This document shows, piece by piece, positions 21,840-39,463 of a stretch of 64,000 nt of DNA (the first letter of the stretch is position 1; each line of letters begins with the position of its first letter). This DNA is from Dehalococcoidia bacterium. Its GTDB lineage: Bacteria; Chloroflexota; Dehalococcoidia; Bin125. The position numbers were made by a program, and so were the translations under genes. The DNA lies in NCBI GenBank assembly GCA_965237475.1, contig OZ250140.1:2597877-2661876 (forward strand), in the 5' to 3' direction. A model generated the notes under the pieces. That model saw only the letters and a program-made list of their open reading frames with translations. It did not search any database and had not been told where the DNA came from.

Positions 21840-22142
21840 GGGCTTGTGTCCATCCAGATCGACTCGGCGAGGCGATCAAACAGGGACGCGACGTTGGTTG
21901 TTGCCGTCTGGCTGGCTGACACGATCTTAGGGTAGCATTCCTTGGCCGCCTCGAGGTCGAGGCGAATCCAGGCGTTGTGGGCGGCGTGGTTGGGGTTCTC
22001 CCGCTCAGGCGCTTCGCGTCAGCTCCCCCGCGCGGGGAGCGCTTTGGGAGGGGATTCCGCAGCACACTCAATGTGTGCTGCGGGGGGGAGCCATCAGAGG
22101 TCGCGGCTGTCAGAAGTTTCCTCACGGCAGTTATTCCTCCCA

Positions 22143-23696: not shown

Positions 23697-23963
23697 GGTG
23701 AGGCGTCCATCCAGATCGATTCGGCGAGTCGGTCGAAGAGGGCTGCGATGTCAGCTGTTCCCGTCTGGCTGGTTGACACGATCTTAGGGCAGCAATCCTC
23801 GGTCGCCTCGAGGTCGAGGCGAATCCAGGCGTTGTGGGCGGCGTGGTTGGGGTTCTCCCCCTCAGGCGCTTCGCGCCAGCGGAGCCTTTCGGGAGGGGAT
23901 TCCGCAGCACACTTAATGTGTGCTGCGGGAGGGAGCCTTTTGGGAGGGGATTCCGCAGCACAC

Positions 23964-25338: not shown

Positions 25339-26835
25339 TCACTCAACCTTGTATTCGACGCGATATGTCCCGTCCCCAGCGCACCCAATCTGGTTTTCAA
25401 CAAGCCACTGCGCATTTTCCTCCGCCACCGTTCTTGCCGGAGCAGGTCCCAGCACGAACGGACTCAACCCCGTCACGCAAGTGACGGTCGCGACCCATCC
25501 CGGCTGTTCGCTTGTTGCCCTGACCCCTGACTGACCACCTGTATGGCCCGATCTCGCCGCTGGAATGTTCACTCTCCAATCAAAGGCCACGGTCGCCCAA
25601 ATGCCGTAGGCATGTCCGTTCCGGAGTATAAACCGAGTGTTCAGAAACTCGGGCGCGTCTTTGGCATATATGCGCCAAACCATGTTTGCGACATCATACC
25701 ACACTGCATGACTGATCCTGTCCTCGTTATCGATCGCAATGTCGACCCGCGTCGCGAAACCGGGCCATATTATGTCGGTCAGTTCTCCTGCCTCCAAGCT
25801 GATTGTGGTAGTCTGGATGGAGATGACGACGGGGGTAACGGGCGCTCTCGGCGTTCCATACGCAGGATTACTTGGCCCGCCATGAACCGGGCCGCGAACG
25901 ACACGCAGTTCGATCACGTATTCCTGATCATTGGTCAGAGTCTCGATATCGAAGGTCTCTGCTTGTAGGTTAGGCAAGTCCATCTCCCGCCAATCCCCGC
26001 CATCGAGCCGATGTTGGTACCTGTCGCCCCTCCGCACTATTAGTGGCTTTTCCCAAGTGATACGCAGGCTCTCGTTCGTGGCCGTCGCCTGTAGCGCGGT
26101 TGGTTTTTTGGGAACGCCGTAATAGGCTACGAGAAAATCGGTCAAGTCGGTGTCCGTCAGGCGCGGCAGATTGCCCCCGGCAGTTACCGTGCAAGCATCG
26201 GTGATGGTATCGGTGTTCATCAGGGCGACGTGGTCCAGCTCCAAGTTTCCGCCGGGATCGTGGACAACCGGTGTGTACCCGCAATGATAATGCGACAAGC
26301 CCAGGACGTGCCCCAACTCATGGCCAAGGTCACGAACTAACTGACGATTGGTAGCGCTATCAGTGCTGGGTGTGTAATAGCTGGCAACGACATGAATGAA
26401 GGCCTTGCGCGTATACGTCTGCAGAGTCGGGTTGTAATGTGTGTGTTGTGCGCACAGCAGACCTGCCGCGGAACACGGGTTGATCGCAGGTCTTGACACC
26501 TCGACACTTGCAAGCTTGTCAGTGGATTCGGCGGTGCATTCGTCTCTATCGCTTTGGAAGACGAACAGGGGGGCATCGGTGTACGCTGCAGTCGCATCGT
26601 TCCAGATCCTGATGGCCTCCTCGGTCGCCAGGGGAAAGCCTGCGGAACAAGTGGGGATGCTCTCTGCGAGTTCGACGTTTCTGACTGTAATACTCGGGTG
26701 CAAGAGATAGGGACTTCGGTGTTCGTCTGTGTGACCCGACTTCGTGGTGGTGGCGTCGAGCAGGATTCCCAGCGCGAGCATCAGTAGGATTAGGGCCACT
26801 GCTTTCGCACTTGCGATGTGGTGGCGGGGTGTCAT
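25339..26835 (-). CDS. Secreted zinc metalloprotease of the metzincin clan (HELGHVLGLSH) with a C-terminal FN3/Ig-like region
   Basis: HExxHxxGxxH motif; N-terminal signal/TM; start overlaps the stop of 26832..28895 by 4 bp, so the two are probably co-transcribed. Confidence 0.7.
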   Translation of the reverse strand: MTPRHHIASAKAVALILLMLALGILLDATTTKSGHTDEHRSPYLLHPSITVRNVELAESIPTCSAGFPLATEEAIRIWNDATAAYTDAPLFVFQSDRDECTAESTDKLASVEVSRPAINPCSAAGLLCAQHTHYNPTLQTYTRKAFIHVVASYYTPSTDSATNRQLVRDLGHELGHVLGLSHYHCGYTPVVHDPGGNLELDHVALMNTDTITDACTVTAGGNLPRLTDTDLTDFLVAYYGVPKKPTALQATATNESLRITWEKPLIVRRGDRYQHRLDGGDWREMDLPNLQAETFDIETLTNDQEYVIELRVVRGPVHGGPSNPAYGTPRAPVTPVVISIQTTTISLEAGELTDIIWPGFATRVDIAIDNEDRISHAVWYDVANMVWRIYAKDAPEFLNTRFILRNGHAYGIWATVAFDWRVNIPAARSGHTGGQSGVRATSEQPGWVATVTCVTGLSPFVLGPAPARTVAEENAQWLVENQIGCAGDGTYRVEYKVE

Positions 26836-28895
26836 GGCGTTTGGCCTTCGACGCTCGCGGATGCGGCAATGTAGTCGAACACATCCTCGATAGTCACGCC
26901 GTCAGCAGTCCGGGCGTTGGACCCTATATGCCTGGAAGATACTGTTCCGTCCCCGATTTCGAGGCAGAGAAAAGCTTCATCGGCGGTAGCGGCCAAGCAG
27001 AGGGACATTCCGTTGTAGTTGACGATCGTTCCGCCCCACTCAAGGTGATGAGCGGTAGTAGGAATAGAGAAGGCCAGGTGCGGATTTCCACCTGGTCTGG
27101 TCGAGAATTGATAGCGTCCCGGTGCGAATGGTAGGCCGCTGAGGGCATCGTCCACGGGCGCCGGTGCGGTAGGCGAAGGGGGATTGGTGACCGTGAAGCG
27201 AAGGGTAACGACAATGTCGCCGAGTTGCGGTTTTAGTCCGGGCCGGAGCGGCGGCTTCGCCGCTCGGAGGTCGAAGGTGAGTTCCGATGCCGCGCCTTCA
27301 AATTCAGTCGGCGTGAAGGTGTAGGTCGTGCCGACTGGAGGGATCAGTCGCTCGTAGGTGGTGGGCGAGGGACGCGCGAGGGGCGTCCGTTGCAGGTAGA
27401 AGCGGGTGTAGCCCGCCGGCAGCCGGGCGGCCGTCACGACGGTGACCTGCTGACCGCGCTCGACCTGGTAGCGGCCGTTTGAGTCGGGCTGGATGAGGAG
27501 CGAGTCGGGGATGTCCTGGACCTGGGCGTAGTCGTCCGGGGCGCCTTTGTAGACGGCGCGGATGCAGTCTGCATCGGTCGCCGTGGCGCAGCGGTCCGTT
27601 GGCAGCGGCGTGAATGCCGCTGTGACGGTCTTGTCGGGGTACATCTCCAGGACGCAGGTGGTGGCCGTGCCGGCGCAGTCGCCGCCCCAGCCCCCGAAGC
27701 TGTGCGTCGCATCGTTCCAGCTCGCCGTCAACGTCACTTCGGAGTCTTCTTCGTGGGTGGTCGCGCCGGCCGGGTCGACGCTGCCGCCGGCCCCTGCGGT
27801 GGCGGTCAGGGTGTAGGTCGGCAGCGGGGTCTCGGGCGTCGCCGGTGCGTCCGCGGCGCAGTCGGGCAGGTTCAAGTGCCCCAGGTCATTGGTCCGCACC
27901 CGCCGCAAGCGCGGCGGCACGCAGCCGCTGATCCCGCTGTTGCCCTTCACATACAGCCGGCTCAACTCACGCAAGTTCGTCAACTGCTGCGGCAGCGAAC
28001 CCGTCAAGCGGTTGTGCTCCAGGCGCAGATTGTCGAGTTGCGTCAGGTTGCCCAACTGGGTCGGAAGCGGACCCGAGAGCTGGTTGCGCGCCAGATGCAG
28101 CCAGCTCAGGTTCACGAGCCGGCCCAGGCGCGTCGGGATCGAGCCGGTCAGCCGATTGCCGTCCAGGTAGAGGTCCGCGAGGCCGGTGAGGTTGCCCAGC
28201 TGCGGCGGGATCGAACCGGTCAGCCCGACCCCCTCCGGCAGCGGCCGCGGTCCGCTCAGGATCAGGTCGGTCAGCTGCGGGCCGATCGCGCCCAGCTCGG
28301 GCGGGATCGGGCCGGTCAGCCGGTTGCCGGCGAGGTTGAGATCGGTCAGCCGGGTGAGCTGTCCCAGTTCCGCCGGGATCGAACCGGTGAGCCGGTTGCG
28401 CCAGGCCAACTGCAACTCAGTCAGCCCGGTCAGCCCGCCCAAGGCGGGCGGGATCGTGCCGTCAATGCCCGCCCGATCCAGGTTCAGCACCGTCACTCGC
28501 TGGACGCCGTCCACCGTGCCGACCGTGATGCCGGTCCACTGATTGAGCTGGCGCTCGGCGCTCCAGTTGAGCGTGGCCGTGCCGCGCAATGTGTCCTTGG
28601 CCGCCAGCAGCACGGCGCAGTCTGCGACCAGGTCGGGGTTGTCGGTTGGGCTCGGTACGACGGTGCCGTTCGCGCAGGGCTCCGTCGCCGACGCGGGCTG
28701 GGGGCCAAGGCCCGAGGTCAGGAGGATCGTCGCCACGAGCGCAGCGATCATCAGGAGGAGCGCCGTGGAGGCCGCGTAGCGCTTCCAGCTGGGGGTCGCT
28801 GCCTGTCCGCCTGCGTCCTCGGCGCGCCGCGCCCTCGTCAGCCGGGCGCGCAGCGCCGCCAAGCCAGCCAGAATCGCGCGCGTGACTTCAGACAT
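26832..28895 (-). CDS. Secreted LRR + InlB-B-repeat-like + DRC-domain protein; its N-terminal ~420 aa are a near-copy of the giant protein's N-terminus
   Basis: Nucleotide segment 27820-28900 is roughly 90% identical to 17000-18080; C-terminal ...DVFDYIAASASVEGQTP. Confidence 0.75.
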   Translation of the reverse strand: MSEVTRAILAGLAALRARLTRARRAEDAGGQAATPSWKRYAASTALLLMIAALVATILLTSGLGPQPASATEPCANGTVVPSPTDNPDLVADCAVLLAAKDTLRGTATLNWSAERQLNQWTGITVGTVDGVQRVTVLNLDRAGIDGTIPPALGGLTGLTELQLAWRNRLTGSIPAELGQLTRLTDLNLAGNRLTGPIPPELGAIGPQLTDLILSGPRPLPEGVGLTGSIPPQLGNLTGLADLYLDGNRLTGSIPTRLGRLVNLSWLHLARNQLSGPLPTQLGNLTQLDNLRLEHNRLTGSLPQQLTNLRELSRLYVKGNSGISGCVPPRLRRVRTNDLGHLNLPDCAADAPATPETPLPTYTLTATAGAGGSVDPAGATTHEEDSEVTLTASWNDATHSFGGWGGDCAGTATTCVLEMYPDKTVTAAFTPLPTDRCATATDADCIRAVYKGAPDDYAQVQDIPDSLLIQPDSNGRYQVERGQQVTVVTAARLPAGYTRFYLQRTPLARPSPTTYERLIPPVGTTYTFTPTEFEGAASELTFDLRAAKPPLRPGLKPQLGDIVVTLRFTVTNPPSPTAPAPVDDALSGLPFAPGRYQFSTRPGGNPHLAFSIPTTAHHLEWGGTIVNYNGMSLCLAATADEAFLCLEIGDGTVSSRHIGSNARTADGVTIEDVFDYIAASASVEGQTP

Positions 28896-28948
28896 CGCTC
28901 CACCTCTCACCGCACTACGCTGCCCCGACCTCGGGAGGGGAGCCTAGC

Positions 28949-30268
28949 ATGGCGGGACCGCTTGATGGCGTTCGGGTGCTTGAACTTGGGCAGATCATTG
29001 CGGGGCCGTATGCGGCCACTGCGCTGGCCGACCTTGGCGCCGAGGTGGTCAAGCTGGAGCCGCCGGGGGGCGAGGGCGGGCGCCGGCTGGGGCAGTTCGC
29101 GCCCGGCGAGAGCAAGGCCTTCCACAGCCTGAGCCGCGGCAAGCGCGGGATCGTCGTGGACCTGCGCAAGCCGCGCGGACGCGAGGTCGTCCAGCGCCTG
29201 ATTGCCGATTTCGATGTCTTCGTGACGAACGCGCGGCCCGGCGTGCCGGAACGGATCGGCGTCGACTACGAGACGTTGCGGGGCTACCGCTCCGACCTGA
29301 TCTACCTGCACATCACCGGCTTCGGGGACCCCAACCAGGTCCCGGCGGGGGCGCTCGACGCGCGGCGGCTGCAGGAGATCACGCAGCGCGCGGGCTCGGA
29401 CGTGATCGTGCAGGCGTACTCCGGCCTGCTGGCGGCCGACGAGAAGGTCGACCGGCACGGCGCGCCAGAGCCAATCACTGCGACGGCCCCAGCCGACTGG
29501 GTGGCGGCGTTCGGGGGCGCGATGGGGGTGTGCGCGGCGCTCTTTCACCGCCAACGCAGCGGCGAGGGGCAATACCTGACCACCTCGCTGTTGGCCGCGG
29601 CGCTGACGCTGCAGGCGCCCTGGCTCGCCTCGGTGCCGCCGTCGGACGCGTTTCTGGTGCAGCCGCTGCTCGACCGCTTCGCCGAGCTGCGCGACGCGGG
29701 CGCCAGCTACGCCGAGCTGATCGAGGCTCGCCGCGAGGCGCCGCGCCAGACCCGCGCCTTCCGGCTCTACTACGGCGGCTATTCCGTGAGCGATGGCGCG
29801 ATCATCCTCGGCGCGTTGACGCCGGCCAACCGCAACCAGATCAGGCGGGCGCTGGGGATCACCGACGACCCGACCGAGAGCGACGATTTCAACGCGATCG
29901 CGCCCGAGTCGGGCCCGATCGTCGATGGCGTGCGGCGGCAGATCGCCGAGCGGATGCTGAGCGCCACGATGGAAGAATGGATGCAGCGCTTCGACGCCGA
30001 GGGTGCGCCGGCGTCGATCGTGCGCCTGCCCGAGGAGATCAACCTCGACCCCGAGCTCGACGCGATGGGTCTGCTGCGCCCGATCGAGCACGCGCTCAGC
30101 GGCCCCGAGCGCCACGTCGGTCCGCTGGTGAATATGTCGGCCACGCCGACGGGCACGGATCGCCCGTCGCCGCCACTCGACGCGCACACCGACGAAGTGC
30201 TGCGGGAGCACCACTTCAGCGAGGAAGAGATCGCGGCCCTTCGAGGCGAGGGCGCCATCGGTGTCTGA
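28949..30268 (+). CDS. Family III CoA-transferase (CaiB/BaiF family)
   Basis: VLELGQIIAGPYAATALADLGAEVVKLEPPGG N-terminal signature. Confidence 0.75.
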   Translation: MAGPLDGVRVLELGQIIAGPYAATALADLGAEVVKLEPPGGEGGRRLGQFAPGESKAFHSLSRGKRGIVVDLRKPRGREVVQRLIADFDVFVTNARPGVPERIGVDYETLRGYRSDLIYLHITGFGDPNQVPAGALDARRLQEITQRAGSDVIVQAYSGLLAADEKVDRHGAPEPITATAPADWVAAFGGAMGVCAALFHRQRSGEGQYLTTSLLAAALTLQAPWLASVPPSDAFLVQPLLDRFAELRDAGASYAELIEARREAPRQTRAFRLYYGGYSVSDGAIILGALTPANRNQIRRALGITDDPTESDDFNAIAPESGPIVDGVRRQIAERMLSATMEEWMQRFDAEGAPASIVRLPEEINLDPELDAMGLLRPIEHALSGPERHVGPLVNMSATPTGTDRPSPPLDAHTDEVLREHHFSEEEIAALRGEGAIGV

Positions 30269-30508: not shown

Positions 30509-31447
30509 ATGCGAGGTGTTGGCGTCATCGAATTCGGCGGTCCGGAGGCTCTGCAGGTCGTTGAGCTACCGGAGGTCCACGCGGGGCCGGGCGAGCTGCG
30601 GCTGCGCGTCCACGCGGCGACCGTCAACCCGACTGACACGTTCGTGCGCGGCGGCGGGCGCGCGGAGGCGCTGCGGAAGGACCCGCCGCCCTACATCCCG
30701 GGCATGGACGCGGCCGGCGTGATCGACGAGATCGGGCCCGACACCGAGACCGGCCTCGCGATCGGCGACGCGGTGATGGCGATGGTGATACCGAGCGGCA
30801 GCCACGGCGCGTACCGCGAGAGCATCGTGCTGTCGGCCGACGCCGTCGCCCGCGCGCCGGCCGGCGCCTCGCACGCCGAGGCCTCGACGTTGCCGATGAA
30901 CGGTCTCACGGCGCGGCTGTCGCTGGATCAGCTGGCGTTGCAGCCGGGCCAGACGATCGCCGTGACGGGTGCGGCGGGCTGCTACGGCGGCTACATGGTC
31001 CAGCTCGCCAAGGCCGATGGTCTGCGCGTGATCGCAGACGCGTCAGCCAGCGACGAACAGTTGGTGCGTGACCTGGGCGCCGACATCGTGGTGCCGCGCG
31101 GCGACGACATCTCCGAGCAGATCAGGAAGGTCGCGCCGGACGGGGTTGACGCGCTGGCCGACGGCGCGGTGCAGAACGAACTCGCGGTTGGCGCGATTCG
31201 CGACGGCGGGCAGTTCGCCAGCGTTCGCGGCTGGCGCGGGAACGGCGAGCGCGAGATCACGTTCCACGTGACGTTGGTCTTCAGCTACGACCATCGCGCC
31301 GACCTGATCGACGAGCTGCGCCGGCAGACCGAGGCCGGGCTGGTGACGATGCGGGTCGCAGCGACGTATCCGCCGGAGGAGGCGGCCGAGACGCATCGCA
31401 GGATGAAGGCGGGCGGCACGCGGGGCCGGTGCGTGATCACGTTCTAG
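30509..31447 (+). CDS. Zn-independent MDR-superfamily oxidoreductase (NADPH:quinone reductase-like)
   Basis: GGPEALQVVELPEVHAGPGELRLRVHAATVNPTD ... TGAAGCYGGYMVQLAK. Confidence 0.65.
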   Translation: MRGVGVIEFGGPEALQVVELPEVHAGPGELRLRVHAATVNPTDTFVRGGGRAEALRKDPPPYIPGMDAAGVIDEIGPDTETGLAIGDAVMAMVIPSGSHGAYRESIVLSADAVARAPAGASHAEASTLPMNGLTARLSLDQLALQPGQTIAVTGAAGCYGGYMVQLAKADGLRVIADASASDEQLVRDLGADIVVPRGDDISEQIRKVAPDGVDALADGAVQNELAVGAIRDGGQFASVRGWRGNGEREITFHVTLVFSYDHRADLIDELRRQTEAGLVTMRVAATYPPEEAAETHRRMKAGGTRGRCVITF

Positions 31448-33900
31448 CGTTCGGCCGTCGGCGGAGGCTCCGTGCGCGCTGAAGCGGCGATGTAATCGAA
31501 GACGTCGGAGATAGTCACTGAGGCATCCGTCAGGGATCTACCAGGGATGGCACGGTATACCTCCCCGCCGTCTGCCTGGGCGAGACAGAGTGTGGAGGTC
31601 TCTGCCAGATCGGCGAGGCAGAATGAAATGCCACCCGGATCCGAGAGGATGATCTCTTGCCATTTGATCTGGTGGTCGGTCGTCGGGATCTGAATGATCA
31701 ACGGTCGCTGTTCCGACCGCAACGCTGGGAATTGATATGTGCCGGGTGGTAGAGCCTCGGCATTGTAGGCAGAAAGAGGAACTTCCACCGGAATGGCCGC
31801 GGGTGGCGGTGTCAGAACGTCGAACGTGGTCGTCACGACGACGTCGCCGAGTTCGGGCTTGATGCCGGGCCGCTGCACGGGCAGCGGGCGGGCGGCGGTG
31901 AGATCGAATGTGAGGACGCTGGCGCCGCCCTCGAAGGCGATCGAAGTAAACGTGTAGGTCGTCCCTACCGGTTGGATCAGCTGTTCATGGGAGGTCGGCG
32001 AGGGCCGCACCTGGGGGCGGCGCTGGAGGTAGAAGCGGGTGTAGCCGGCGGGCAGGGGGGCGGCTGTGACGACGGTGATCTGCTGGCCGCGCTCGACCTG
32101 GTAGCGGCCGTTTGAGTCGGGCTGGATGAGGAGCGAGTCGGGGATGTCCTGGACCTGGGGGTGATCGTCAGGAGCGCCTTTGTAGACTGCGCGGATGCAG
32201 TCGGCAGCCGTCGGCGTCGTGCAGCGGTCCGCCGGCAGCGGCGTGTACGACGCCGTCACCGTTTTGTTGGCGTACATCTCCAGCACGCAGGTTGTGGCCG
32301 TGCCGCTGCAGTCGCCGTCCCAGCGGGCGAAGGTGTGGGTGGCATCGTCCCAGCTCGCCGTCAGCGTGACCGGCTCTCCCTGAACGTGCGTGGTGATACC
32401 GGTGGGTTCGACGCTGCCGCCTTCACCCGCAGTTATGGTCAACTGAGCTCGCGGCTCGAATAGGCTTCGGGCGATCGCGATGAGGCGATCGACATTGCTC
32501 CCGGTAAGGCTCGTGTTCTCTCCCCGGATCTCATACGTGGCGTCGCTCGCGGAGTCGTAGACCCAGACCGTGACCGGGAACAGGTCGTCGTAGCTTGGAC
32601 CGGGCGGGCTATAGATCACCGTCGCTGGCCGCCCGGCGACGACACGTGTCTCGCGGACTCCGCGACCGTTCCGCCAGGATGCCAGTCTGGGCTCACGCCG
32701 GTGTGCGGTGTCGTAGCCGGAGATGGCGACATCGCTTTCGCCGCCCTGATACTTGGCGTTGTAGCCATAGACCGGATCCGAGACGTCGCCGCTGCGCGCC
32801 CAGTCAAGCGTCGCACCCTCAGCTAGCGTCGGGTCCCGCCAGTATGGCAGCCGGCGCGCCTCATCGATGTCGCTCGTGCCGGTCGGCTGCGAGTAGGAAT
32901 ACCCTGCAGGCTCGCGTGTGAGGGGTTCCTCGACTGCACCGGTCCAGTCTTCGGGAACGATCTGGAAGGGACCATGGATCACTGGCGCCGTAAGGCTCGC
33001 CCCGCCGACGTCGGGCAGGTCGCCCCAGGCGAAGCTGGCATCGGCGCTACCCGCGATCGGGCCGCTGCAACCGCTGAACGCATAGGTCATCCACTCAACT
33101 GTCAGCAGCTTGCGCGGCTCTGCACCTTCCGGGTCGGGCTTGACCTCGGTCACGGTATAGCGCACCCAGCAGTCGTCGGCCGTGCGCCATTCGAAAAGGT
33201 CGTCTGCTTCGATCGAATCGAACAGAGTTGCCTGCGATGCTCCGTGCGTGTCGGACTTGTGGATCAGCAGTCCGGTCGTGGCGCCGTCGCGCAGGCCTTC
33301 GTAGGTGCTGACGGCGCTGGTCGTGTCGGCCGGGTCGGAGAGGAAGGCGTAGCTGCCCGCCGTCGCCACTGCGCCCGTCATGTCGTAGCTGGTGTAATGC
33401 AGAGTCGTCGTGTCGACCTGGAACTTAGTCGTCACGACTACATCCCCGAGCTCCGGCTTCTGTCCCGGTCGCGGGAACGGCCGCGGCCGGGCGGCGGTTA
33501 GGTCGAAGCTGAGCAGGGTGGAGCCGCGCTCATCGGTGGTGACGGTGAAGGTGTAGGTCGTGCCGACCGGTGGGATCAGCTGTGCAGCCGAGGTGGGACT
33601 GACGGTGACCTGCAGCGGGCGGCGCTGGAGGAAGAAGCGGGTGTAGTCGGCGGGTAGCTGAGCGGCGGTCACGACGGTGATCTGCTGGCCGCGCTCGACC
33701 TGGTAGCGGCCGTCCGGGTCGGGGGCCAGGAGCATCTCGGCGGGAATGTCCGTAATCTTTGTGTAGTCGTGCGGGGCGCCTTTGTAGACGGCGCGGATGC
33801 AGTCGGCGTCGGTGGGCGTCGCGCAGCGGTCCGCGGGCTGCGCCGTAAGCAACATGATCACGGCGAACCACAGGATGGCAATGAGTCGCGAGTAGGTCAT
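31444..33900 (-). CDS. Secreted protein with two DRC domains and one InlB-B-repeat-like domain (818 aa)
   Basis: Signal peptide MTYSRLIAILWFAVIMLLTAQPADRC; DRC domain at the N-terminus and again after the B-repeat; C-terminal ...DVFDYIAASARTE. Confidence 0.7.
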   Translation of the reverse strand: MTYSRLIAILWFAVIMLLTAQPADRCATPTDADCIRAVYKGAPHDYTKITDIPAEMLLAPDPDGRYQVERGQQITVVTAAQLPADYTRFFLQRRPLQVTVSPTSAAQLIPPVGTTYTFTVTTDERGSTLLSFDLTAARPRPFPRPGQKPELGDVVVTTKFQVDTTTLHYTSYDMTGAVATAGSYAFLSDPADTTSAVSTYEGLRDGATTGLLIHKSDTHGASQATLFDSIEADDLFEWRTADDCWVRYTVTEVKPDPEGAEPRKLLTVEWMTYAFSGCSGPIAGSADASFAWGDLPDVGGASLTAPVIHGPFQIVPEDWTGAVEEPLTREPAGYSYSQPTGTSDIDEARRLPYWRDPTLAEGATLDWARSGDVSDPVYGYNAKYQGGESDVAISGYDTAHRREPRLASWRNGRGVRETRVVAGRPATVIYSPPGPSYDDLFPVTVWVYDSASDATYEIRGENTSLTGSNVDRLIAIARSLFEPRAQLTITAGEGGSVEPTGITTHVQGEPVTLTASWDDATHTFARWDGDCSGTATTCVLEMYANKTVTASYTPLPADRCTTPTAADCIRAVYKGAPDDHPQVQDIPDSLLIQPDSNGRYQVERGQQITVVTAAPLPAGYTRFYLQRRPQVRPSPTSHEQLIQPVGTTYTFTSIAFEGGASVLTFDLTAARPLPVQRPGIKPELGDVVVTTTFDVLTPPPAAIPVEVPLSAYNAEALPPGTYQFPALRSEQRPLIIQIPTTDHQIKWQEIILSDPGGISFCLADLAETSTLCLAQADGGEVYRAIPGRSLTDASVTISDVFDYIAASARTEPPPTAER

Positions 33901-33912
33901 GTGCGCGAGTCC

Positions 33913-35115
33913 TTATTTGACATTCCGGATCGATGCCATGATCTGATCGAACAGGAGATCGGCCTCGGGCGACTTGGCGAAGCGGCCGAACTCCTCGCCG
34001 GTCCCCGGATTGATGTGGAGCGCCGAGCCGGTTCGCGGCTCGTTCAGCGCAATCCCACGGGATGGGAGGTGGGGGCGGGCTGGGTCACGTTCCATCTCGT
34101 ACAAACCGACGAGAACGATCAAGCTGCCGGCAGGTACGTCGATCACGTATCGCACGCCCGGGTAGAGGCGATAGGTTCCTTTCCCGGCCGGCTCGCCAGG
34201 CAGCAGCAGCTGTACGCCATCTGGAGCAGGAACCCCGTGTGGGACCCGCCAGACGAAGTAGACATCCTTGGCCGCGCCGGGATCTGTGACCAGGCCACCG
34301 CAGCTCCCGCCGTAGCGGTTGACGTTCTCGAGGCCGAAGGTGCGCGTGCTCGCCGCCGCCGCGATGCTCGCGACCTTGAAGCGGAACCCGCAATCGAGGC
34401 CGTTCGTGCGATAGTCGAAGCTGTGACCGATCTGCACCGTGTCGTAGAAGTCGGCGCGGGATGCCCCATTCGCGTCCGTCGGGTGAATGCGTAACTCCAC
34501 GCTCACTTGTGCGGAAGAGCCATAGTTGCCGATCGCGCTTGCTGCATCCCCGGCAGTTTTGAGGAAGGCGTAGCTGCCGGGGGTGGCCGGTGCGCCGGTG
34601 ATGTCGAGCGTGTCGTAGCGCAGGGTCGGGACCAGGAAATTGGTCGTGACCACGACATCGCCGAGTTCGGGCTTCTGTCCCGGTCGCGGTAGCGGTCGCG
34701 GTCGAGCCTCCGTGAGGTTGAAGGTGATCAGGTTTGAACCAGCCTCATTTGCGGCCACAGTGAAGGTGTAGGTCGTGCCGACCGGTTGAATGAGCTGCTC
34801 GAATGAGGTCGGACTGACGGTGACCTGCAGCGGTTGGCGCTGGAGGTAGAAGCGGGTGTAGTCGGCGGGCAGCGGGGCGGCGGTGACGACGGTGATCTGC
34901 TGGCCGCGCTCGACCTGGTAGCGGCCGTCGTCGTCGGGCTGGATGAGGAGCGAGTCGGGGATGTCCTGGACCTGGGCGTAGTCGTCCGGGGCGCCTTTGT
35001 AGACGGCGCGGATGCAGTCGGCGTCGGTCGGCGTCGTGCAGCGGTCGGCCGGCAGCGACGTGAAGAACATGATCACAGCGAAGCACACGGTGGCGACGAG
35101 TCGCGAGTAGGTCAT
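33913..35115 (-). CDS. Secreted DRC-domain protein with a conserved ~250-aa C-terminal domain (400 aa)
   Basis: MTYSRLVATVCFAVIMFF...ADRCTTPTDADCIRAVYKGAPDDY; C-terminal ...LFDQIMASIRNVK; 12-bp gap to the downstream paralog. Confidence 0.7.
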   Translation of the reverse strand: MTYSRLVATVCFAVIMFFTSLPADRCTTPTDADCIRAVYKGAPDDYAQVQDIPDSLLIQPDDDGRYQVERGQQITVVTAAPLPADYTRFYLQRQPLQVTVSPTSFEQLIQPVGTTYTFTVAANEAGSNLITFNLTEARPRPLPRPGQKPELGDVVVTTNFLVPTLRYDTLDITGAPATPGSYAFLKTAGDAASAIGNYGSSAQVSVELRIHPTDANGASRADFYDTVQIGHSFDYRTNGLDCGFRFKVASIAAAASTRTFGLENVNRYGGSCGGLVTDPGAAKDVYFVWRVPHGVPAPDGVQLLLPGEPAGKGTYRLYPGVRYVIDVPAGSLIVLVGLYEMERDPARPHLPSRGIALNEPRTGSALHINPGTGEEFGRFAKSPEADLLFDQIMASIRNVK

Positions 35116-35128
35116 CGTTGTTGAGTGT

Positions 35129-36430
35129 CTAGTTCACCGTGCGGATCGACGCCATGATCTGATCGAACAAGGCTCCCGCTGCGGACGACGTGATGTAGCG
35201 GTAAACCTCTGTGCAGGCGTCCGGATCGATGTGCAGCGACGAGTCGTTCGCCTCGTTGAGGAGAACGGCGGTTGCATGCGGAAGGTCGGGGTTGTCAGGG
35301 TCTGGTTCTGACTCGGCGATCGAGCCATAAACGATCACACTGCCGGCGGGTACGGCGATGGTGCACGGCACTCCATCGTCGATGCGGTATGTTCCCTCGC
35401 CGACCGGCTCGCCGTAGAGCAGGACCCGGACGCCCCCCGGAGCCTCGAGTCCAGGGCGGACCCGCCACGCGAAGTCCACTGGCTTTGCCGCGCCAGGATC
35501 ATCAACGAATTCACCGCACGACCCGCCGTAGTCGGCTACGTCTGCAATGCCGAACGTTCTGGGACTCGCCGCCTCGCCGACGCTGGTCACCTTGAAGCGG
35601 AACCCGCAACGGAGACCATTCGTCCGGTAGTCAAAGACGTCACCGACCTGCACCGTGTCGAAGAAGGCCGCGCGCGATGTCCCGCTCGCGTCCGTTAGGT
35701 GGACGCGCAGTTCGACGCTTCCGTAGGCGGATGCACTGAAGTTGCCAATGGCGCTTGCTGCATCCCCGGCCGTCTTGAGGAATGCGTAGCTGCCGGGGGT
35801 GGCCGCGGCGCCGGTGATGTCGAGCGTGTCGTAGCGGAACTTCGTGGTCTCGATATAGAAGACCGCGCTGACGACCGTATCCCCGAGTTGCGGCTTCAGA
35901 CCGGGCTGTGGCGGCGGCTTGGCTGCCGTCAGGTCGAACGCGATCAGAATGGAGCCCTCGAAGTCGGTGGTGAGCGTGAACGTGTAGGTCGTACCCAGCG
36001 GCGGGATCAGCCGCATGTCCGTTGTCGGTGGGCGGCCCGTCACCGGACGGACTTGCAGGTCGAAGCGGGTGTAGCCGGCGGGCAGCGGGGCGGCCGTCAC
36101 GACGGTGATCTGCTGGCCGCGCTCGACCTGGTAGCGGCCGTCGTCGCCGGGCTGGATGAGGAGCGAGTCGGGGATGTCCGGGACCTGGGTGTAGTCGTCC
36201 GGGGCGCCGCGGTAGACGGCGCGGATGCAAGTGGGGTCGGTCGGTGTCGTGCAACGGTCCGGCGGCATCGGGGTGACCGGGGTGTCCGCCGCATCGCGGG
36301 CCGAGTCCTGCGAAGTCTGCTGCGCTACGGAGGTGGGCTGCGGGGCGGCGTTGGAGGTCAGGAGGATCGTGGCCGCCACGGCGGCGGCCAGCACGAACGT
36401 GGCGGCGAGGGCTGCGTAGCGCATCGGCAT
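35129..36430 (-). CDS. Secreted DRC-domain protein, paralog (433 aa)
   Basis: Signal anchor MRYAALAATFVLAAAVAATILL; DRC domain; C-terminal ...LFDQIMASIRTVN. Confidence 0.7.
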   Translation of the reverse strand: MPMRYAALAATFVLAAAVAATILLTSNAAPQPTSVAQQTSQDSARDAADTPVTPMPPDRCTTPTDPTCIRAVYRGAPDDYTQVPDIPDSLLIQPGDDGRYQVERGQQITVVTAAPLPAGYTRFDLQVRPVTGRPPTTDMRLIPPLGTTYTFTLTTDFEGSILIAFDLTAAKPPPQPGLKPQLGDTVVSAVFYIETTKFRYDTLDITGAAATPGSYAFLKTAGDAASAIGNFSASAYGSVELRVHLTDASGTSRAAFFDTVQVGDVFDYRTNGLRCGFRFKVTSVGEAASPRTFGIADVADYGGSCGEFVDDPGAAKPVDFAWRVRPGLEAPGGVRVLLYGEPVGEGTYRIDDGVPCTIAVPAGSVIVYGSIAESEPDPDNPDLPHATAVLLNEANDSSLHIDPDACTEVYRYITSSAAGALFDQIMASIRTVN

Positions 36431-36448
36431 CAGGGTCTCCTCACCGCG

Positions 36449-36613
36449 ACGGTTCAGCCTGCGGCGGGACGCGACGGGCGGCGACTGTTGCGGTCACCTG
36501 GTCGGCCTCGACGGTTGTGGGGCCTGGCATGCCGAGCGGGGTCAGCGCCGTAATCAGCATGACTACCACGAAGCACAAGACGGCGACGGATCGGGAGTAG
36601 GTCATGGTGAGTG
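36449..36613 (-). pseudogene. 54-aa N-terminal (signal-peptide) fragment of a further DRC-family paralog
   Basis: Translation MTYSRSVAVLCFVVVMLITALTPLGMPGPTT... matches the MTYSRLVATVCFAVIMFF N-termini and then terminates. Confidence 0.5.
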
Positions 36614-36614
36614 C

Positions 36615-37919
36615 TTACTGCCGACGGATCGATGCGATGAGCTGTTCGAACAGTGTGCTCGGATGCGTCCCGATGATGTAGATTTGGCCCGTATGCCCGT
36701 TCGAGGGATCGATGTGGATCACGGAGCCCGTATCGACGTCTTCCAGCACCAGGGTGCTCGTTGGTTGGTCAGGCCGGTTTACGTCCGGTTCGTTGATAGC
36801 GACCCCGTGGTATATGATTCTCATGCCAGCAGGAACGTCGATCACCCACCGCCAGTATGTGTCAATTCGATAGGTTCCCTGACCGACAGGCTCGCCGTTG
36901 AGCAACACGCGCACTCCGTCTGCACCAAGGACGCCAGGCCGCACGCGCCAGATGAACTCGACCGGCTTAGCGGCGCCGGGGTCGTCGATGAAGCTGCCAC
37001 ACCCCCCGCCGTAAGAGCCTGCGTCTTCAATGCCGAACGTCCTCGGACCCGTCGTTGTCCCGATGCTCGTTACGTTGAAGCGGAACCCGCAATCGAAGCC
37101 GTTCGTCCGGTAGTCGAACGCGTCACCGACTTGGACGATGTCGTAGAAGTCCGCGCGCGAGGCCCCGCCCGCATCGGTTGGGTGGACGCGCAACTCGACG
37201 CTTCGGAGGGCGGAAACGCTGAAGTTGCCGATCGCGGTCGATGCGTCGCCGGCGGTCTTGAGGAAGGCGTAGCTGCCGGGGGTGGCCGCGGCGCCGGTGA
37301 TGTCGAGCGTGTCGTAGCGCAGGGTCGGGACCAGGAACTCGGTCGTGACCACAACATCGCCGAGTTCGGGCTTCTGTCCCGGTCGCGGTAGCGGGCGCGG
37401 TCGAGCCTCCGTCAGGTTGAAGGTGATCAGGTTTGAACCAGCCTCATTTGCGGCCACAGTGAAGGTGTAGGTCGTGCCGACCGGTTGAATGAGCTGCTCG
37501 AATGAGGTCGGACTAACGGTGACCTGCAGCGGTTGGCGCTGGAGGTAGAAGCGGGTGTAGTCGGCGGGCAGCGGGGCGGCGGTGACGACGGTGATCTGCT
37601 GGCCGCGCTCGACCTGGTAGCGGCCGTCGTCGTCGGGCTGGATGAGGAGCGAGTCGGGGATGTCCTGGACCTGGGCGTAGTCGCCTGGGGCGCCTTTGTA
37701 GACGGCGAGGACGCAAGTGGGGTCGGTCGGTGTCGTGCAGCGGTCCGGCGGCTGCGGCTTGGCCGGAGTGGCGGGCGCGTCGCGGGACGAGTCCTGCGAA
37801 GTCTGCTGCGCTACGGAGGCGGGCTGCGGGGCGGCATCGGAGGTCAGGAGGATCGTGGCCGCCACGGCGGCGGCGAGCACGAACGTGGCGGCGAGGGCTG
37901 CGTAGCGCATCCGCATCAA
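36615..37919 (-). CDS. Secreted DRC-domain protein, paralog (434 aa)
   Basis: MRYAALAATFVLAAAVAATILL; DRC domain; C-terminal ...LFEQLIASIRRQ. Confidence 0.7.
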   Translation of the reverse strand: MMRMRYAALAATFVLAAAVAATILLTSDAAPQPASVAQQTSQDSSRDAPATPAKPQPPDRCTTPTDPTCVLAVYKGAPGDYAQVQDIPDSLLIQPDDDGRYQVERGQQITVVTAAPLPADYTRFYLQRQPLQVTVSPTSFEQLIQPVGTTYTFTVAANEAGSNLITFNLTEARPRPLPRPGQKPELGDVVVTTEFLVPTLRYDTLDITGAAATPGSYAFLKTAGDASTAIGNFSVSALRSVELRVHPTDAGGASRADFYDIVQVGDAFDYRTNGFDCGFRFNVTSIGTTTGPRTFGIEDAGSYGGGCGSFIDDPGAAKPVEFIWRVRPGVLGADGVRVLLNGEPVGQGTYRIDTYWRWVIDVPAGMRIIYHGVAINEPDVNRPDQPTSTLVLEDVDTGSVIHIDPSNGHTGQIYIIGTHPSTLFEQLIASIRRQ

Positions 37920-38152
37920 GGTCTCCTCGCCGCGGCGGTTCCACGCTGTGGGCAGACGCGAGGGGCGGCGGCTGTTTCGGTCATGCGCCCGCCCCGGACG
38001 CCGGGGGCGGGTGGTTCCAGCCGCTCGGCGCTGGCCGCTGTCGCGTCGTTACGACGCTATCGAAGGGGCCGTGGTTCCGCGGGCGCCGCGAACTCGGCGT
38101 TTGGCTGGCGGCATCGCTCAGTTTCGGCGCCGCGCTAGCCTGCTGCTGAGCG

Positions 38153-39463
38153 ATGATCGGGGGCGATATGCCGGGTCCACTGCACGGGATTTCGGTGCTG
38201 GAGGTTTCGCAGATCATCGCGGGGCCGATGTGCGGGGTGCTTCTGTCGGATATGGGCGCCGATGTGGTGAAGGTGGAAGCGCCCGGCGGCGAGGCGCTGC
38301 GGGTGGTTGGGCAGTTCGCCCCGAACGAGAGCAAGGTCTTCCACGTCTTCAATCGGGGCAAGCGCGGGATCGTGCTGAACCTCGCCGACGAGCAGGGCCG
38401 CGCCGTGGCGCATCGGCTGGTGCGCGACTTCGATGTGTTCCTGATCAATGCGCGGCCGGGCGTGCCGGCGCGGCTGGGCCTGGACTACGAGACGATCCGT
38501 GAGCAGCAGCCGAACATCATCTACCTCGACAACACTGCGTATGGACCGGAGGGCCCGAGCGCCCATCGCGCCGGCGCCGACATCATTGCGCAGGCCTACT
38601 CGGGCCTGATGGCGGCCGACGAGAAGGTCGACGCAAACGGCGACCCGGTGCTGATCACGGCGACGACCCCGGCCGACTTCGGCGCGGCCTTCACCAGCGC
38701 AATCGGCGTCTGCGCGGCGCTGTTTCACCGCGAGCGCACGGGCGAGGGACAACGCATCCAGACGTCGCTGCTGGGCGCGGCGCTGACGCTGCAGAACACA
38801 GGCAACGCGCGGCTGCCGGCGTCGGACGCGATCCTGCTCGACCCGTCCCTGGACGCGGTCGCCGAAGTGCGTGCACGGGGTGGCACGTGGCCCGAGTTGC
38901 TCGCTGCCCGTTCTGGTACGCGCGCGCTGGTCGGAGGAGCGTTTCTGCTGTACTACGGCGGTTACCAGACGCGCGACGGCGCGATCATGCTGGGCGCACT
39001 GACGCCCAACAATCAGCGGCAGATTCGCGACGCGATCGGCCTGGACCACGATCCGAGCAGCGAGCCCGACTTCAATCCGCTGGCGGAGGATTCGGAAGCG
39101 ATCGTTGACGGCGTGCGTGAGCGGATCAGCGCGATTTTTCGCAGCGACACCACGGCGCACTGGATCGAGCGGCTCGACGCCACCGGCGCGCCCGCCTCGC
39201 AGGTCAATCTGCCCGAGGACATGGTCCACGATCCGCAGGTTCAGGCGCTGGGCATCATGGTCGAGCTGGAGCATCCGCTGACCGGGCCGGAGACGATGGC
39301 CGGCCCGTCGTGGTCGATGTCGGCCACGCCACTGGAGGCACAGGGAGCGTCGCCGATGCTGGACCAAGACACAGACAACGTTTTGGCCGAACATGGTTTC
39401 AGCGCCGAAGAGATCGCTGCGCTGCGGGCCAGCGGGGCGATCGGCGCAGCAGCGCCGGAGTAG
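38153..39463 (+). CDS. Family III CoA-transferase (CaiB/BaiF), paralog of 28949..30268
   Basis: ISVLEVSQIIAGPMCGVLLSDMGADVVKVEAPGG. Confidence 0.75.
   Translation: MIGGDMPGPLHGISVLEVSQIIAGPMCGVLLSDMGADVVKVEAPGGEALRVVGQFAPNESKVFHVFNRGKRGIVLNLADEQGRAVAHRLVRDFDVFLINARPGVPARLGLDYETIREQQPNIIYLDNTAYGPEGPSAHRAGADIIAQAYSGLMAADEKVDANGDPVLITATTPADFGAAFTSAIGVCAALFHRERTGEGQRIQTSLLGAALTLQNTGNARLPASDAILLDPSLDAVAEVRARGGTWPELLAARSGTRALVGGAFLLYYGGYQTRDGAIMLGALTPNNQRQIRDAIGLDHDPSSEPDFNPLAEDSEAIVDGVRERISAIFRSDTTAHWIERLDATGAPASQVNLPEDMVHDPQVQALGIMVELEHPLTGPETMAGPSWSMSATPLEAQGASPMLDQDTDNVLAEHGFSAEEIAALRASGAIGAAAPE

Follow-up and report, generated by a model that had tools for sequence, protein, structure and literature searches.

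We analysed a 64,000-nt stretch of contig OZ250140.1 (hereafter, the window), whose source organism is a soil Chloroflexota, a Tepidiformales-like monoderm of the Dehalococcoidia. A minus-strand array at positions 31444-37916 of the window comprises four genes and a 54-aa open reading frame (ORF), the latter lying between the last two genes in coordinate order (genes 1 and 2 in our numbering, which runs down the minus strand). The same genes were called independently in ENA for this sequence, where the last one starts at the ATG at 37916 and encodes 433 aa (36615-37919 in the ORF list). ORF coordinates and gene call thus agree with the minus-strand tandem array of four paralogues described in a first-pass annotation, although the spacers measure 9-13 bp rather than the 12-14 bp given there. 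The features of the array, with the conserved module, the mid domain and the C-terminal domain (CTD) discussed below, are as follows.

37917-38152, no strand: intergenic region separating gene 1 from the divergent CoA-transferase gene
36615-37916, minus strand: array gene 1, 433 aa, MRMRY type, with a short basic N-terminus, a 22-residue hydrophobic anchor, a Pro/Thr/Gln-rich linker, module, mid and CTD
37320-37751, minus strand: module copy in gene 1, located by TBLASTN
36441-36605, minus strand: 54-aa ORF (MTYSRSVAVLCFVVVMLITALTP...), between genes 1 and 2
35129-36430, minus strand: array gene 2, 433 aa, MRMRY type, with anchor, linker, module, mid and CTD
35846-36265, minus strand: module copy in gene 2, located by TBLASTN and the family HMM
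33913-35115, minus strand: array gene 3, 400 aa, MTYSR type, with a 21-aa signal peptide joined straight to the module
34621-35052, ~34267-34626 and ~33916-34266, minus strand: module, mid and CTD of gene 3, respectively
31444-33900, minus strand: array gene 4, 818 aa, MTYSR type, with a fusion-like architecture
N-terminal part of gene 4, minus strand: signal peptide, module 1 (33409-33837), mid (~33052-33402) and class-B domain (~32449-33051)
C-terminal part of gene 4, minus strand: InlB B-repeat (~32239-32445), module 2 (31810-32235) and CTD of the ...DVFDYIAAS type (~31471-31815)

The Shine-Dalgarno sequence of gene 1, GAGGAGAC, lies 4-5 nt upstream of its ATG. Since the array contains no notable terminator or promoter consensus, we placed the putative promoter region for the whole array at 37917-38152; no Rfam family reached threshold anywhere in the window. 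The array genes have GC3 values of 0.80-0.83, in the order GC3 > GC1 > GC2, which is the codon position bias typical of real genes. Their GC3 is lower than that of the neighbouring genes (0.85-0.94), which speaks against expression at the very high level expected of a major S-layer protein.

Two types of N-terminus were distinguished by their hydrophobicity and charge, as assessed by visual inspection and a simple script. The MTYSR type is composed of MTYSR, 15-16 hydrophobic residues and SLPA/DRC, whereas the MRMRY type is composed of MRMR and 22 hydrophobic residues, followed by a linker of ~30 aa rich in Pro, Thr and Gln before the module. A direct junction of signal peptide and module, which had been ascribed to each gene, is found in the MTYSR-type genes only; in the MRMRY type the anchor and the linker stand between. 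A regular-expression and hydrophobicity scan of the window proteins found no lipobox, LPXTG motif or C-terminal transmembrane (TM) segment. Cysteines of the ectodomains are always paired within a domain and are probably disulfide-bonded. The basic start, the 15-22 hydrophobic residues and these paired cysteines are in agreement with the earlier description of the products as secreted proteins, which would be exported by way of a Sec signal peptide or a signal anchor.

The module is ~142 aa long and has two invariant cysteines, close to the ~150-aa two-cysteine domain originally delineated. Identity between the window copies is 69-95% with a mean column identity of 82%, and within the array the gene 2 copy diverges most (67-69% identity to the others). 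We identified seven modules in six genes by TBLASTN, all with E <= 4.5e-50 (next best match, E = 0.21), and the family HMM, applied to all six-frame ORF segments of at least 25 aa, returned the same seven copies and nothing else below E = 1. Therefore, the six genes of the first-pass annotation stand, as do its two copies in 31444-33900 and its single copies in two genes outside the array; the eighth copy that it counted is absent from the window by both methods. The two outside genes are the following.

26832-28895 (also given as 26832-28910), minus strand: related gene with anchor, LRR, InlB B-repeat, module (27189-27602) and CTD (tail ...DVFDYIAASASVEGQTP)
10690-18138, minus strand: giant gene, 2482 aa, with anchor, LRR, InlB B-repeat and module (16351-16779)

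In 77 diverse sequences, C5 and C13 of the module never vary, and its signature consists of an N-terminal Cys-x7-Cys clasp with the motifs AVYxGAP, GRYxVERGQQ and TTYTFT. No family in Pfam-A 2025 or NCBIfam r20 covers the module in the six window proteins at E <= 0.1, and the best match of the module profile to PDB sequences had E = 0.32, in line with the initial impression that it belongs to no known family. When 76 family representatives were compared with Pfam at E <= 1e-3, only LRR, Flg_new_2, fn3, GerE and a few other families matched, and in the window proteins, where the match positions were read, these lie outside the module. The AF2 model built from the 77-sequence alignment (pLDDT 90.5, pTM 0.84, eight strands) replaced an unusable one from the 7-copy alignment (pLDDT 46), and it agrees with the beta-sandwich that had been expected, with a conserved N-terminal Cys pair. 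A Foldseek search with this model reached a TM score of ~0.4 to Ig V-set domains, with no match at E <= 1e-3; the structural matches are generically Ig-like, with Z never reaching 8, and show no preference for S-layer proteins. The module is thus predicted to be an immunoglobulin-like beta-sandwich, at fold level only and with no superfamily assigned; it is undescribed at the sequence level, yet structurally ordinary.

The real unit, however, is a three-domain cassette made up of the module, a mid domain (~118 aa) and a CTD (~115 aa), and module-mid-CTD is repeated within single proteins according to jackhmmer and HMM searches. The ~250-aa region ending in LFDQIMASIR in three array genes, the InlB B-repeat (Flg_new_2) and the LRR domains are all as first described. 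The C-terminal domains had also been called variable, but the same searches placed all the tails, of the LFDQIMASIR as well as the DVFDYIAAS type, among the divergent members of one CTD family. As hhalign comparisons of module with mid, module with CTD, and CTD with class B gave probabilities below 1%, we treated the module, mid, CTD and class B as separate domains; the mid and C-terminal domains have no detectable relatives. The class-B domain of gene 4, ~200 aa long and ending in AIARSLFEP, was considered as a possible DUF4367/LolA-like anti-sigma domain, but 19 members compared with Pfam at E <= 5 gave no such match. A D-x-T-G sequence in the mid domain was considered as an aspartic-protease motif and is not conserved across the family. 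The array genes themselves contain no LRR or other established binding domain.

At 50% identity, the module family forms 184 clusters. Our genome scan found the family only in Dehalococcoidia/Tepidiformaceae MAGs, usually with the module after LRR and InlB-B-repeat domains; as the scan was seeded with a pattern, this taxonomic limit rests on the pattern, and divergent members may be missed. The proteins obtained by a word-index search were all under 250 aa long and in many cases frameshifted. Among the 76 representatives, Pfam detected Flg_new_2 in 45, LRR in 32, fn3 in 8 and a GerE/LuxR helix-turn-helix (HTH) in 4, and HTH-fused members are more numerous by N-terminal sequence than this last count. 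Proteins with the order HTH-TM-linker-module-mid-CTD were read directly, for instance P0083 and P0120, in which the cassette is the whole ectodomain, and HTH-fused members form tandem pairs in loci L012 and L027. TBLASTN with the HTH found no LuxR-fused member in the 64-kb window. Searches for a defence, phage or plasmid origin were all empty: PADLOC and PHROGs gave no match, nor did TBLASTN searches of 50,697 records from phages and 72,556 from plasmids, while a scan of IMG/VR yielded no homologue and BFVD no match at E <= 1e-3. As to the array genes being targets of a diversity-generating retroelement, no reverse transcriptase domain was found in the ~46 window ORFs scanned with Pfam, and the repeats within the array are whole-gene paralogy only.

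The 54-aa ORF had been taken for the decayed remnant of a fifth array paralogue. Its likeness to MTYSR signal peptides holds, but one sister genome has a HELGH+fn3 protein of 881 aa that genuinely begins with this sequence, and the element is conserved immediately upstream of all four MRMRY/MRTRY-type gene starts examined in the two sister genomes, so it is no such remnant. Its frame and stop vary in the sister genomes, and its 3' end contains the Shine-Dalgarno sequence of the next gene. The ORF, at most a putative coding sequence, is a conserved 5' relic of an MTYSR-headed neighbouring gene type, and it travels with each duplication unit.

Orthologous arrays are present at the same locus, between the CoA-transferase and ADH flanks, in two other complete MAG chromosomes. 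There, OZ253504.1 has two intact copies and a broken one, and OZ244584.1 has at least six modules, against four genes and five modules in the window; these differing counts bear out the tandem amplification proposed earlier, for which a copy-number comparison of sister genomes had been suggested. The modules of genes 1 and 3 share 95% amino acid and 96% nucleotide identity with a dS of 0.076, whereas the rest of the same gene pair has a dS of 0.69-0.89, and since the module is so low relative to the rest of the pair, this identity is a recent gene-conversion tract. The pattern is reversed in the sister-genome comparison, with a dS of 0 in the CTD, 0.04 in the mid domain and 0.36 in the module. 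A conserved N-terminus with a variable C-terminus, as first depicted, is thus too simple a description: patchy gene conversion makes any segment (anchor, module, mid or CTD) the most or the least conserved one depending on the pair. Among the window paralogues, the CTD is the most divergent segment (dN 0.42-0.54). In every pair, the structured domains (module, mid and CTD) each have a dN/dS of 0.2-0.6, and the short N-terminal segments have one of 0.5-1.3; the former values show that the array genes are functional and under purifying selection.

One might suspect that the genes are pseudogenes in decay, or that a repeat was mis-assembled or collapsed in a long-read assembly of low coverage, given the one contig copy at 6.33x coverage, the many frameshifted or truncated relatives in the databases and the broken copy in a sister genome. 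We consider this explanation extremely improbable, because none of the four ORFs is interrupted, dN/dS comes near 1 in the short N-terminal segments only, the codon position bias is that of real genes, the identical 400-aa protein occurs on more than one contig, some of them over 1 Mb, and two other complete chromosomes carry the array at the same place. These sequence comparisons show four ways in which the family diversifies. Tandem duplication copies a unit together with the 5' relic of the neighbour; deletions fuse the signal peptide of the relic to the module, giving rise to the secreted MTYSR-type genes; gene fusion yields genes such as the 818-aa one; and patchy gene conversion homogenises one segment in one sister species and another segment in another.

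Polymorphic toxin systems (Rhs/CDI/LXG) likewise have paralogues in tandem, incomplete ORFs standing between complete genes, and segments shuffled by recombination, and the first-pass annotation had offered a polymorphic effector family as an alternative. Such a family would join an N-terminal delivery part to variable C-terminal toxins and be accompanied by orphan cassettes. The array does resemble this arrangement superficially in its conserved N-terminal module, divergent C-termini, tandem copies and truncated ORF, and the divergence of the CTD among the window paralogues, as well as a weak match to NCBIfam T7SS_Rv3446c (21 bits versus a cutoff of 47.6), could be cited for it. However, the C-termini of the array are mutually homologous and under purifying selection, searches of Pfam, NCBIfam, PADLOC and PHROGs found no known trafficking or delivery, pre-toxin, toxin or immunity domain, the 9-13 bp spacers are too short for immunity genes, the single small ORF is what remains of a signal peptide, with a frame and stop that vary between genomes, and in transcription factors this cassette forms the ectodomain. 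An effector role is therefore very unlikely. We likewise rejected an association with type VII secretion, as the sub-threshold match (TIGR03931) is confined to the anchor and the low-complexity linker.

The adhesin/surface-protein reading, also put forward in the first-pass annotation, fits best, given the export signals, the Ig-like module, and the LRR and B-repeat company in relatives. The best explanation, to which we give a probability of roughly 0.6, is that the array encodes lineage-specific exported envelope proteins of a Tepidiformales-like bacterium, acting in binding or adhesion in the wall/S-layer zone rather than in catalysis or toxicity. Under this explanation, the MRMRY type would be tethered to the cytoplasmic membrane by its uncleaved anchor and a flexible Pro/Thr-rich stalk, whereas the MTYSR type would be released by a short cleavable signal peptide, and both would display a disulfide-bonded cassette of Ig-like module, mid and CTD. 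Most likely, the Ig-like module would act as a rigid spacer or adaptor placed directly after the LRR and InlB-B-repeat units or the anchor, and the mid and C-terminal domains would form the ligand-binding end, to judge from their context only. Since the cassette is elsewhere the ectodomain of membrane-tethered LuxR-type regulators, recognition of something outside the cell is plausible. The array is thus a rapidly reshuffled, lineage-specific cell-surface protein family and not a new kind of system; the label of an undescribed system was overstated for a multi-domain exported family with a generic Ig-like fold.

Cultured Tepidiforma is a monoderm with a wall zone of ~40 nm and an S-layer that bears unexplained, regularly spaced protein complexes (PMC10284905). 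With these in mind, and with an N-terminal anchor and Pro/Thr stalk that suit a wall-spanning tether, the proteins could instead be S-layer-associated or wall-spanning components that have no specific ligand-binding role. We consider such a structural role unlikely: neither SLH, nor S-layer Pfam families, nor other known wall-binding domains were detected by Pfam in the window proteins or the 76 relatives, the structural matches of the module do not favour S-layer proteins, sister species differ strongly in both copy number and sequence, the codon usage is unlike that of highly expressed genes, and cultured Tepidiforma is absent among the genome hits of our pattern-limited scan.

The HTH-fused relatives resemble ToxR/CadC-like regulators in starting with a cytoplasmic DNA-binding domain that is followed by one TM region and, outside the cytoplasm, by the cassette (P0083 and P0120), but their DNA-binding domain is of the LuxR/GerE type in place of the OmpR-like winged helix of ToxR and CadC, and the window genes have none. 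From the existence of these proteins, with their tandem pairs, it could be argued that the cassette is an extracytoplasmic ligand sensor and that the anchor-only array paralogues are decoys, co-receptors or ligand buffers for membrane-tethered LuxR-type regulators with this cassette. As the window holds no LuxR-fused member, and most family members bear LRR, B-repeat or fn3 domains of the surface-protein type and not signalling outputs, this interpretation is unlikely, slightly more so than a structural role. A further speculation, to which we attach less weight again, is that the cassette represents an unrecognised extracytoplasmic sensing unit of Chloroflexota, through which HTH-fused relatives would signal in a ToxR-like manner to their LuxR-type DNA-binding domain, while the reshuffled anchor-only and secreted paralogues would tune or diversify ligand recognition and might be the complexes of the Tepidiforma S-layer.

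For the preferred envelope-protein reading, the closest comparison is with the internalins (Listeria InlA/InlB, of the LRR, Ig-like and B-repeat class), which are likewise exported multi-domain proteins with LRR, InlB-type B-repeats and an Ig-like sandwich, and likewise occur as multigene families in which paralogues stand in tandem; the order in the 26832 gene and in the giant gene is LRR, B-repeat, module. However, internalins have their Ig-like inter-repeat domain joined to the LRR, whereas the module follows the B-repeat here, and the array genes have neither repeat, except for one internal B-repeat in the 818-aa gene. The window proteins also lack LPXTG, GW or other known anchors, an N-terminal TM segment probably serving instead, they score 25.3 bits against NCBIfam internalin_A (cutoff 1600), and their host is a soil Chloroflexota rather than a Firmicute pathogen. 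As for Big-domain adhesins (invasin/intimin, FdeC, Lig) and the Ig-like domains of S-layer proteins (Sap, EA1, SbsB, SbsC), the module differs from them in matching no Big, Cadherin, fn3, PKD or similar Pfam model, in its low Z and Foldseek scores, and in having its own Cys-x7-Cys signature.

These results add three or four unannotated families (the Ig-like module, the mid domain and two types of C-terminal domain), with their extracytoplasmic context, to what is described for the mostly uncultured soil Tepidiformales/Dehalococcoidia, and the alignments could seed Pfam entries. The locus also offers a clear case of surface-gene evolution in monoderm Chloroflexota, in which a relic is carried along with the duplication unit, its signal peptide is re-used in a change from tethered to secreted proteins, and segments are patchily converted. 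It opens no new mechanism and settles no open question, and its wider value hinges on the cassette being a sensor or ligand-binding unit.

Outside the array, the first ~1.7 kb of the giant gene has 88% nucleotide identity to the 26832 gene, and the rest of the giant protein contains fn3 domains, a 13-aa Cys/Pro repeat in 12 copies and two weak CTD-like units at the C-terminus. Its sequence HAALDIGG...HLHFEIR resembles the HxxxD/HxH pattern of M23 peptidases, an assignment that was supported by neither Pfam nor phmmer against PDB. The gene at 25339-26835, whose start is overlapped by the stop of the 26832 gene, encodes a metzincin-like HELGHVLGLSH, with only fn3 matched in Pfam and only archaemetzincin (E = 0.8) in PDB.

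The array consists of five intact ORFs, named here by their lower coordinates, and the same five genes are called independently on an ENA metagenome contig of identical sequence:

31444-33900, minus strand, 818-aa ORF, intact
33913-35115, minus strand, 400-aa ORF, intact
35129-36430, minus strand, 433-aa ORF, intact
36441-36605, minus strand, 54-aa ORF, intact
36615-37919, minus strand, array ORF, intact; in the ENA gene call the start codon is the ATG at 37916 and the product is 433 aa long

Neighbouring ORFs are separated by spacers of 9-13 bp, and their codon positions follow the order GC3 (0.80-0.83) > GC1 > GC2, as in real genes. GC3 is 0.74-0.83 in the surface-protein genes at 10.7-38 kb of the window versus 0.85-0.94 in the interleaved metabolic genes, and the local GC of this region is 0.62-0.67 versus ~0.69. 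One public copy of the locus is a contig with only 6.33x coverage.

Using one copy of the ~142-aa two-cysteine module as the tblastn query, we located seven copies in the window, each with E <= 4.5e-50, the next match having E = 0.21:

37320-37751, module copy
35846-36265, module copy
34621-35052, module copy
33409-33837, module copy
31810-32235, module copy
27189-27602, module copy
16351-16779, module copy

The family HMM, run with filters off on six-frame segments of at least 25 aa, returned no eighth module and nothing further below E = 1; since both searches give seven, the eight copies in six genes counted in the first-pass annotation become seven in six. These copies are 69-95% identical to one another, and both cysteines are among the 68 invariant columns. 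As had been claimed, the module fits no described family: Pfam-A and NCBIfam gave no match to it in any of the six window proteins, the Pfam families recognised in window proteins all lie outside it, and Pfam hits on 76 full-length relatives were limited to LRR, Flg_new_2, fn3, GerE and a few rarer families. PADLOC and PHROGs gave no match, and a 77-sequence module profile found nothing among PDB sequences (best E 0.32). When 1.84 billion cluster representatives were searched exhaustively with HMMER, 184 proteins reached E <= 1e-3, 166 of them E <= 1e-10; the family is compact, with almost no twilight tail. Scanning one genome per GTDB species yielded 30 loci at 52-92% identity, all in MAGs labelled Dehalococcoidia or Tepidiformaceae, a taxonomic restriction that is provisional because the scan was seeded by two peptide patterns. 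No relative was found in phage records, plasmid records, IMG/VR or BFVD. Many database relatives (among the family proteins P0001-P0187, and at genome locus L031) are truncated or end in frameshifted Arg/Pro-rich tails, the cause being either consensus errors in long-read MAGs or genuine pseudogene formation.

A structure model from the seven window copies alone was useless (pLDDT 46); the model from 77 diverse members (module alignment A2) reached pLDDT 90.5 and pTM 0.84, with eight strands and the invariant Cys5 and Cys13 on a short N-terminal segment. Foldseek with this model gave no match at E <= 1e-3, and a TM of about 0.4 to Ig V domains. The module is thus a new sequence family with a predicted generic Ig-like fold, and the confident model bears out the fold guessed at first reading.

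On alignment the array proteins fall into four parts. The N-terminus is followed by the 142-aa module, then by a mid domain (~118 aa; alignment A6) in which two cysteines are invariant, and finally by a C-terminal domain (CTD) of ~115 aa ending in LFDQIMASIR. Iterative within-family searches joined the CTD to the '...DVFDYIAAS' tails of gene 31444 and of the 26832 gene (26832-28895, a module gene outside the array) with E 1e-20 to 1e-28, and therefore what had been described as variable C-termini is one divergent family. Weak CTD matches lie in two C-terminal units of the giant protein (gene 10690-18138, also outside the array) and at the C-terminus of the LRR gene 20463-21839. The 818-aa gene has the order signal peptide, module, mid, ~200-aa class-B domain, InlB B-repeat, module and CTD; about 20 relatives have the class-B domain, which ends in AIARSLFEP, as their C-terminus. 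Module-mid-CTD occurs two or three times per chain in some relatives, e.g. P0066. The mid, CTD and class-B domains gave no match to Pfam, to PDB sequences or to one another. The three-domain cassette of module, mid and CTD is the real unit of the array proteins. The LRR proteins 20463-21839 and 22365-23696 (minus strand, predicted to be exported) end in ...LEQIAASVSW and ...IEKLAASAW, helices like the CTD terminus; the CTD HMM matches the former weakly (1.5e-4) and also matches short ORFs just upstream of the two LRR genes (21839-22018 and 23696-24169, minus strand), possibly CTD relics.

The array genes have two types of N-terminus: the MTYSR type has MTYSR, 15-16 hydrophobic residues and then SLPA|DRC, and the MRMRY type has MRMR, 22 hydrophobic residues and a ~30-aa Pro/Thr/Gln-rich linker. 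A lipobox, an LPXTG motif and a C-terminal TM segment are all absent from the array-family proteins, and the ectodomain cysteines are strictly paired within domains. These N-termini and paired cysteines are consistent with Sec export, one type probably being secreted and the other tethered by its N-terminal anchor and stalk.

Two complete MAG chromosomes share synteny with the window, OZ253504.1 (nucleotide identity about 94-95% in housekeeping genes) and OZ244584.1 (88-93%). Between the same CoA-transferase and ADH genes, the window has four genes with five modules, OZ253504.1 two intact genes and a frameshifted third, and OZ244584.1 at least six modules; array copy number, for which a check of sister genomes had been proposed, does differ. 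We estimated dS and dN/dS by the Nei-Gojobori method with a custom script. In the window, dS between 33913 and 36615 is 0.076 in the module, 0.69 in mid and 0.89 in the CTD, and that between 35129 and 36615 is 0.13 in the anchor and 0.52 in the module; the two genes of OZ253504.1 have identical CTDs (dS 0), with dS 0.04 in mid and 0.36 in the module. Across the array genes, gene conversion has been patchy. In every pair dN/dS is 0.2-0.6 for module, mid and CTD, reaching 0.5-1.3 in short N-terminal segments only; the genes are functional and not pseudogenes. That the array might be an artefact is contradicted by this selection, by the synteny with the sister genomes and by the independent contigs.

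The 54-aa ORF had been taken for a decayed array gene. Its likeness to the MTYSR signal peptides is real (65% identity over 20 aa), but its copies elsewhere point to a relic stub. Similar ORFs lie directly upstream of MRMRY/MRTRY-type starts in both sister genomes (locus L004, 1222 and 2713; locus L002, 11145 and 12641), and related copies occur at L001 11157 and L003 11147. The copies are 60-83% identical to it in amino acids, differ in frame and stop past about codon 25, and are 37-61 aa long; at L003 an 881-aa protein with a HELGH motif and fn3, encoded after an LRR-module gene, has this sequence as its genuine N-terminus. The 3' end of the 54-aa ORF provides the Shine-Dalgarno sequence GAGGAGAC for the MRMRY gene that follows; a remnant of this end also lies ahead of the first array gene. 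The layout is most simply read in three steps: an MRMRY gene would have been duplicated together with the 5' stub of its downstream neighbour; the 54-aa stub would be a relic rather than a decayed array gene; and, we infer, deletions fused the stub's signal peptide to ...PADRC, producing the MTYSR-type genes 33913 and 31444 and turning a tethered protein into a secreted one.

Among 76 relatives, 45 contain an InlB B-repeat, 32 LRRs, eight fn3 and four a GerE/LuxR HTH. The HTH relatives are laid out as a cytoplasmic HTH, a TM region, a PT linker and the cassette, and proteins with a LuxR-type HTH, TM and module form tandem pairs in two other Dehalococcoidia MAGs (L027, 9368-10453 and 12940-13788; L012, 7375-8226 and 9461-10417). 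From these fusions it can be argued that what the cassette recognises lies outside the cell. A sensor or decoy role for the cassette proteins is a rival reading; no HTH-fused member occurs in the window. A purely structural S-layer role for the array proteins is another, cultured Tepidiforma having a monoderm envelope with an S-layer and a wall zone of ~40 nm (PMC10284905). The findings are consistent with a family of envelope proteins that is specific to this lineage and functions in binding or adhesion, its members being exported, disulfide-bonded and multi-domain; the Ig-like module would act as spacer or adaptor, with recognition likely falling to mid and CTD. Of the two possibilities first raised, this agrees with an adhesin or surface-protein family, whereas a polymorphic effector or toxin family fails on every defining point: known trafficking, toxin and immunity domains are all absent, the C-termini are homologous to one another, and immunity genes would not fit between the array genes. 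The closest known proteins are internalin-like LRR/B-repeat/Ig surface proteins and Big-domain adhesins, which the family resembles in outline without being a member: its domain order is different, it lacks an LPXTG or GW anchor and has no sequence match, and the array genes lack LRRs. Rather than the undescribed system suggested initially, the array belongs among those bacterial surface-protein families that are built from Ig-like domains and have been amplified in tandem, and is not categorically new. The family is worth annotating in this under-studied lineage, and the locus neatly illustrates how surface genes evolve.

The window is otherwise an ordinary chromosomal stretch of metabolic genes (including CoA-transferases, enoyl-CoA hydratase, ADH, luciferase-like monooxygenases and an ABC peptide transporter) with minus-strand surface genes interspersed. 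No secretion system, sortase or reverse transcriptase was found near the array, and no Rfam family in the window. Two family-III CoA-transferase paralogues (28949-30268 and 38153-39463, plus strand, 55% aa identity) flank the array region, both adjoining module-bearing genes of the opposite strand. The first ~1.7 kb of the giant and 26832 genes, from the upstream sequence through anchor, LRR and InlB B-repeat to the module, are 88% identical in nucleotides (16230-18190 versus 27310-29015), a segmental duplication after which wholly different 3' parts were gained. At 11695-12168 the giant gene contains a 39-nt tandem unit (12.2 copies, 96% match) encoding PPPPCGGEGQPAC 12 times, a Cys/Pro-rich, stalk-like repeat. 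Residues ~1000-1290 of its protein (about 14270-15140) contain HAALDIGG ... HLHFEIR, like the HxxxD / HxH zinc motifs of M23 (LytM) peptidases, a resemblance that Pfam and PDB sequence searches did not support; FHAGLDIG-type motifs also occur in relatives P0072, P0094 and P0097. The 25339-26835 gene (minus strand), whose start overlaps the stop of the 26832 gene, encodes a 498-aa predicted exported protein with HELGHVLGLSH (HExxHxxGxxH, metzincin-like) and one fn3 domain; Pfam gave fn3 only and PDB only archaemetzincin at E 0.8, leaving the protease assignment unconfirmed. Its homologue at L003 (11147-13792, 881 aa) bears an MTYSR N-terminus. An IS30-like transposase gene (HTH_38 and rve; 43001-44017, plus strand) lies in a ~1.1-kb segment absent at the syntenic site of OZ253504.1 (L002, about 3084-3283), as if inserted recently. 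A 51-nt unit occurs twice (23881-23980, 95% match) in the stretch that separates the 22365-23696 gene from that for enoyl-CoA hydratase; each copy contains the palindrome GCAGCACACTTAATGTGTGCTGC, and the element looks REP- or terminator-like.
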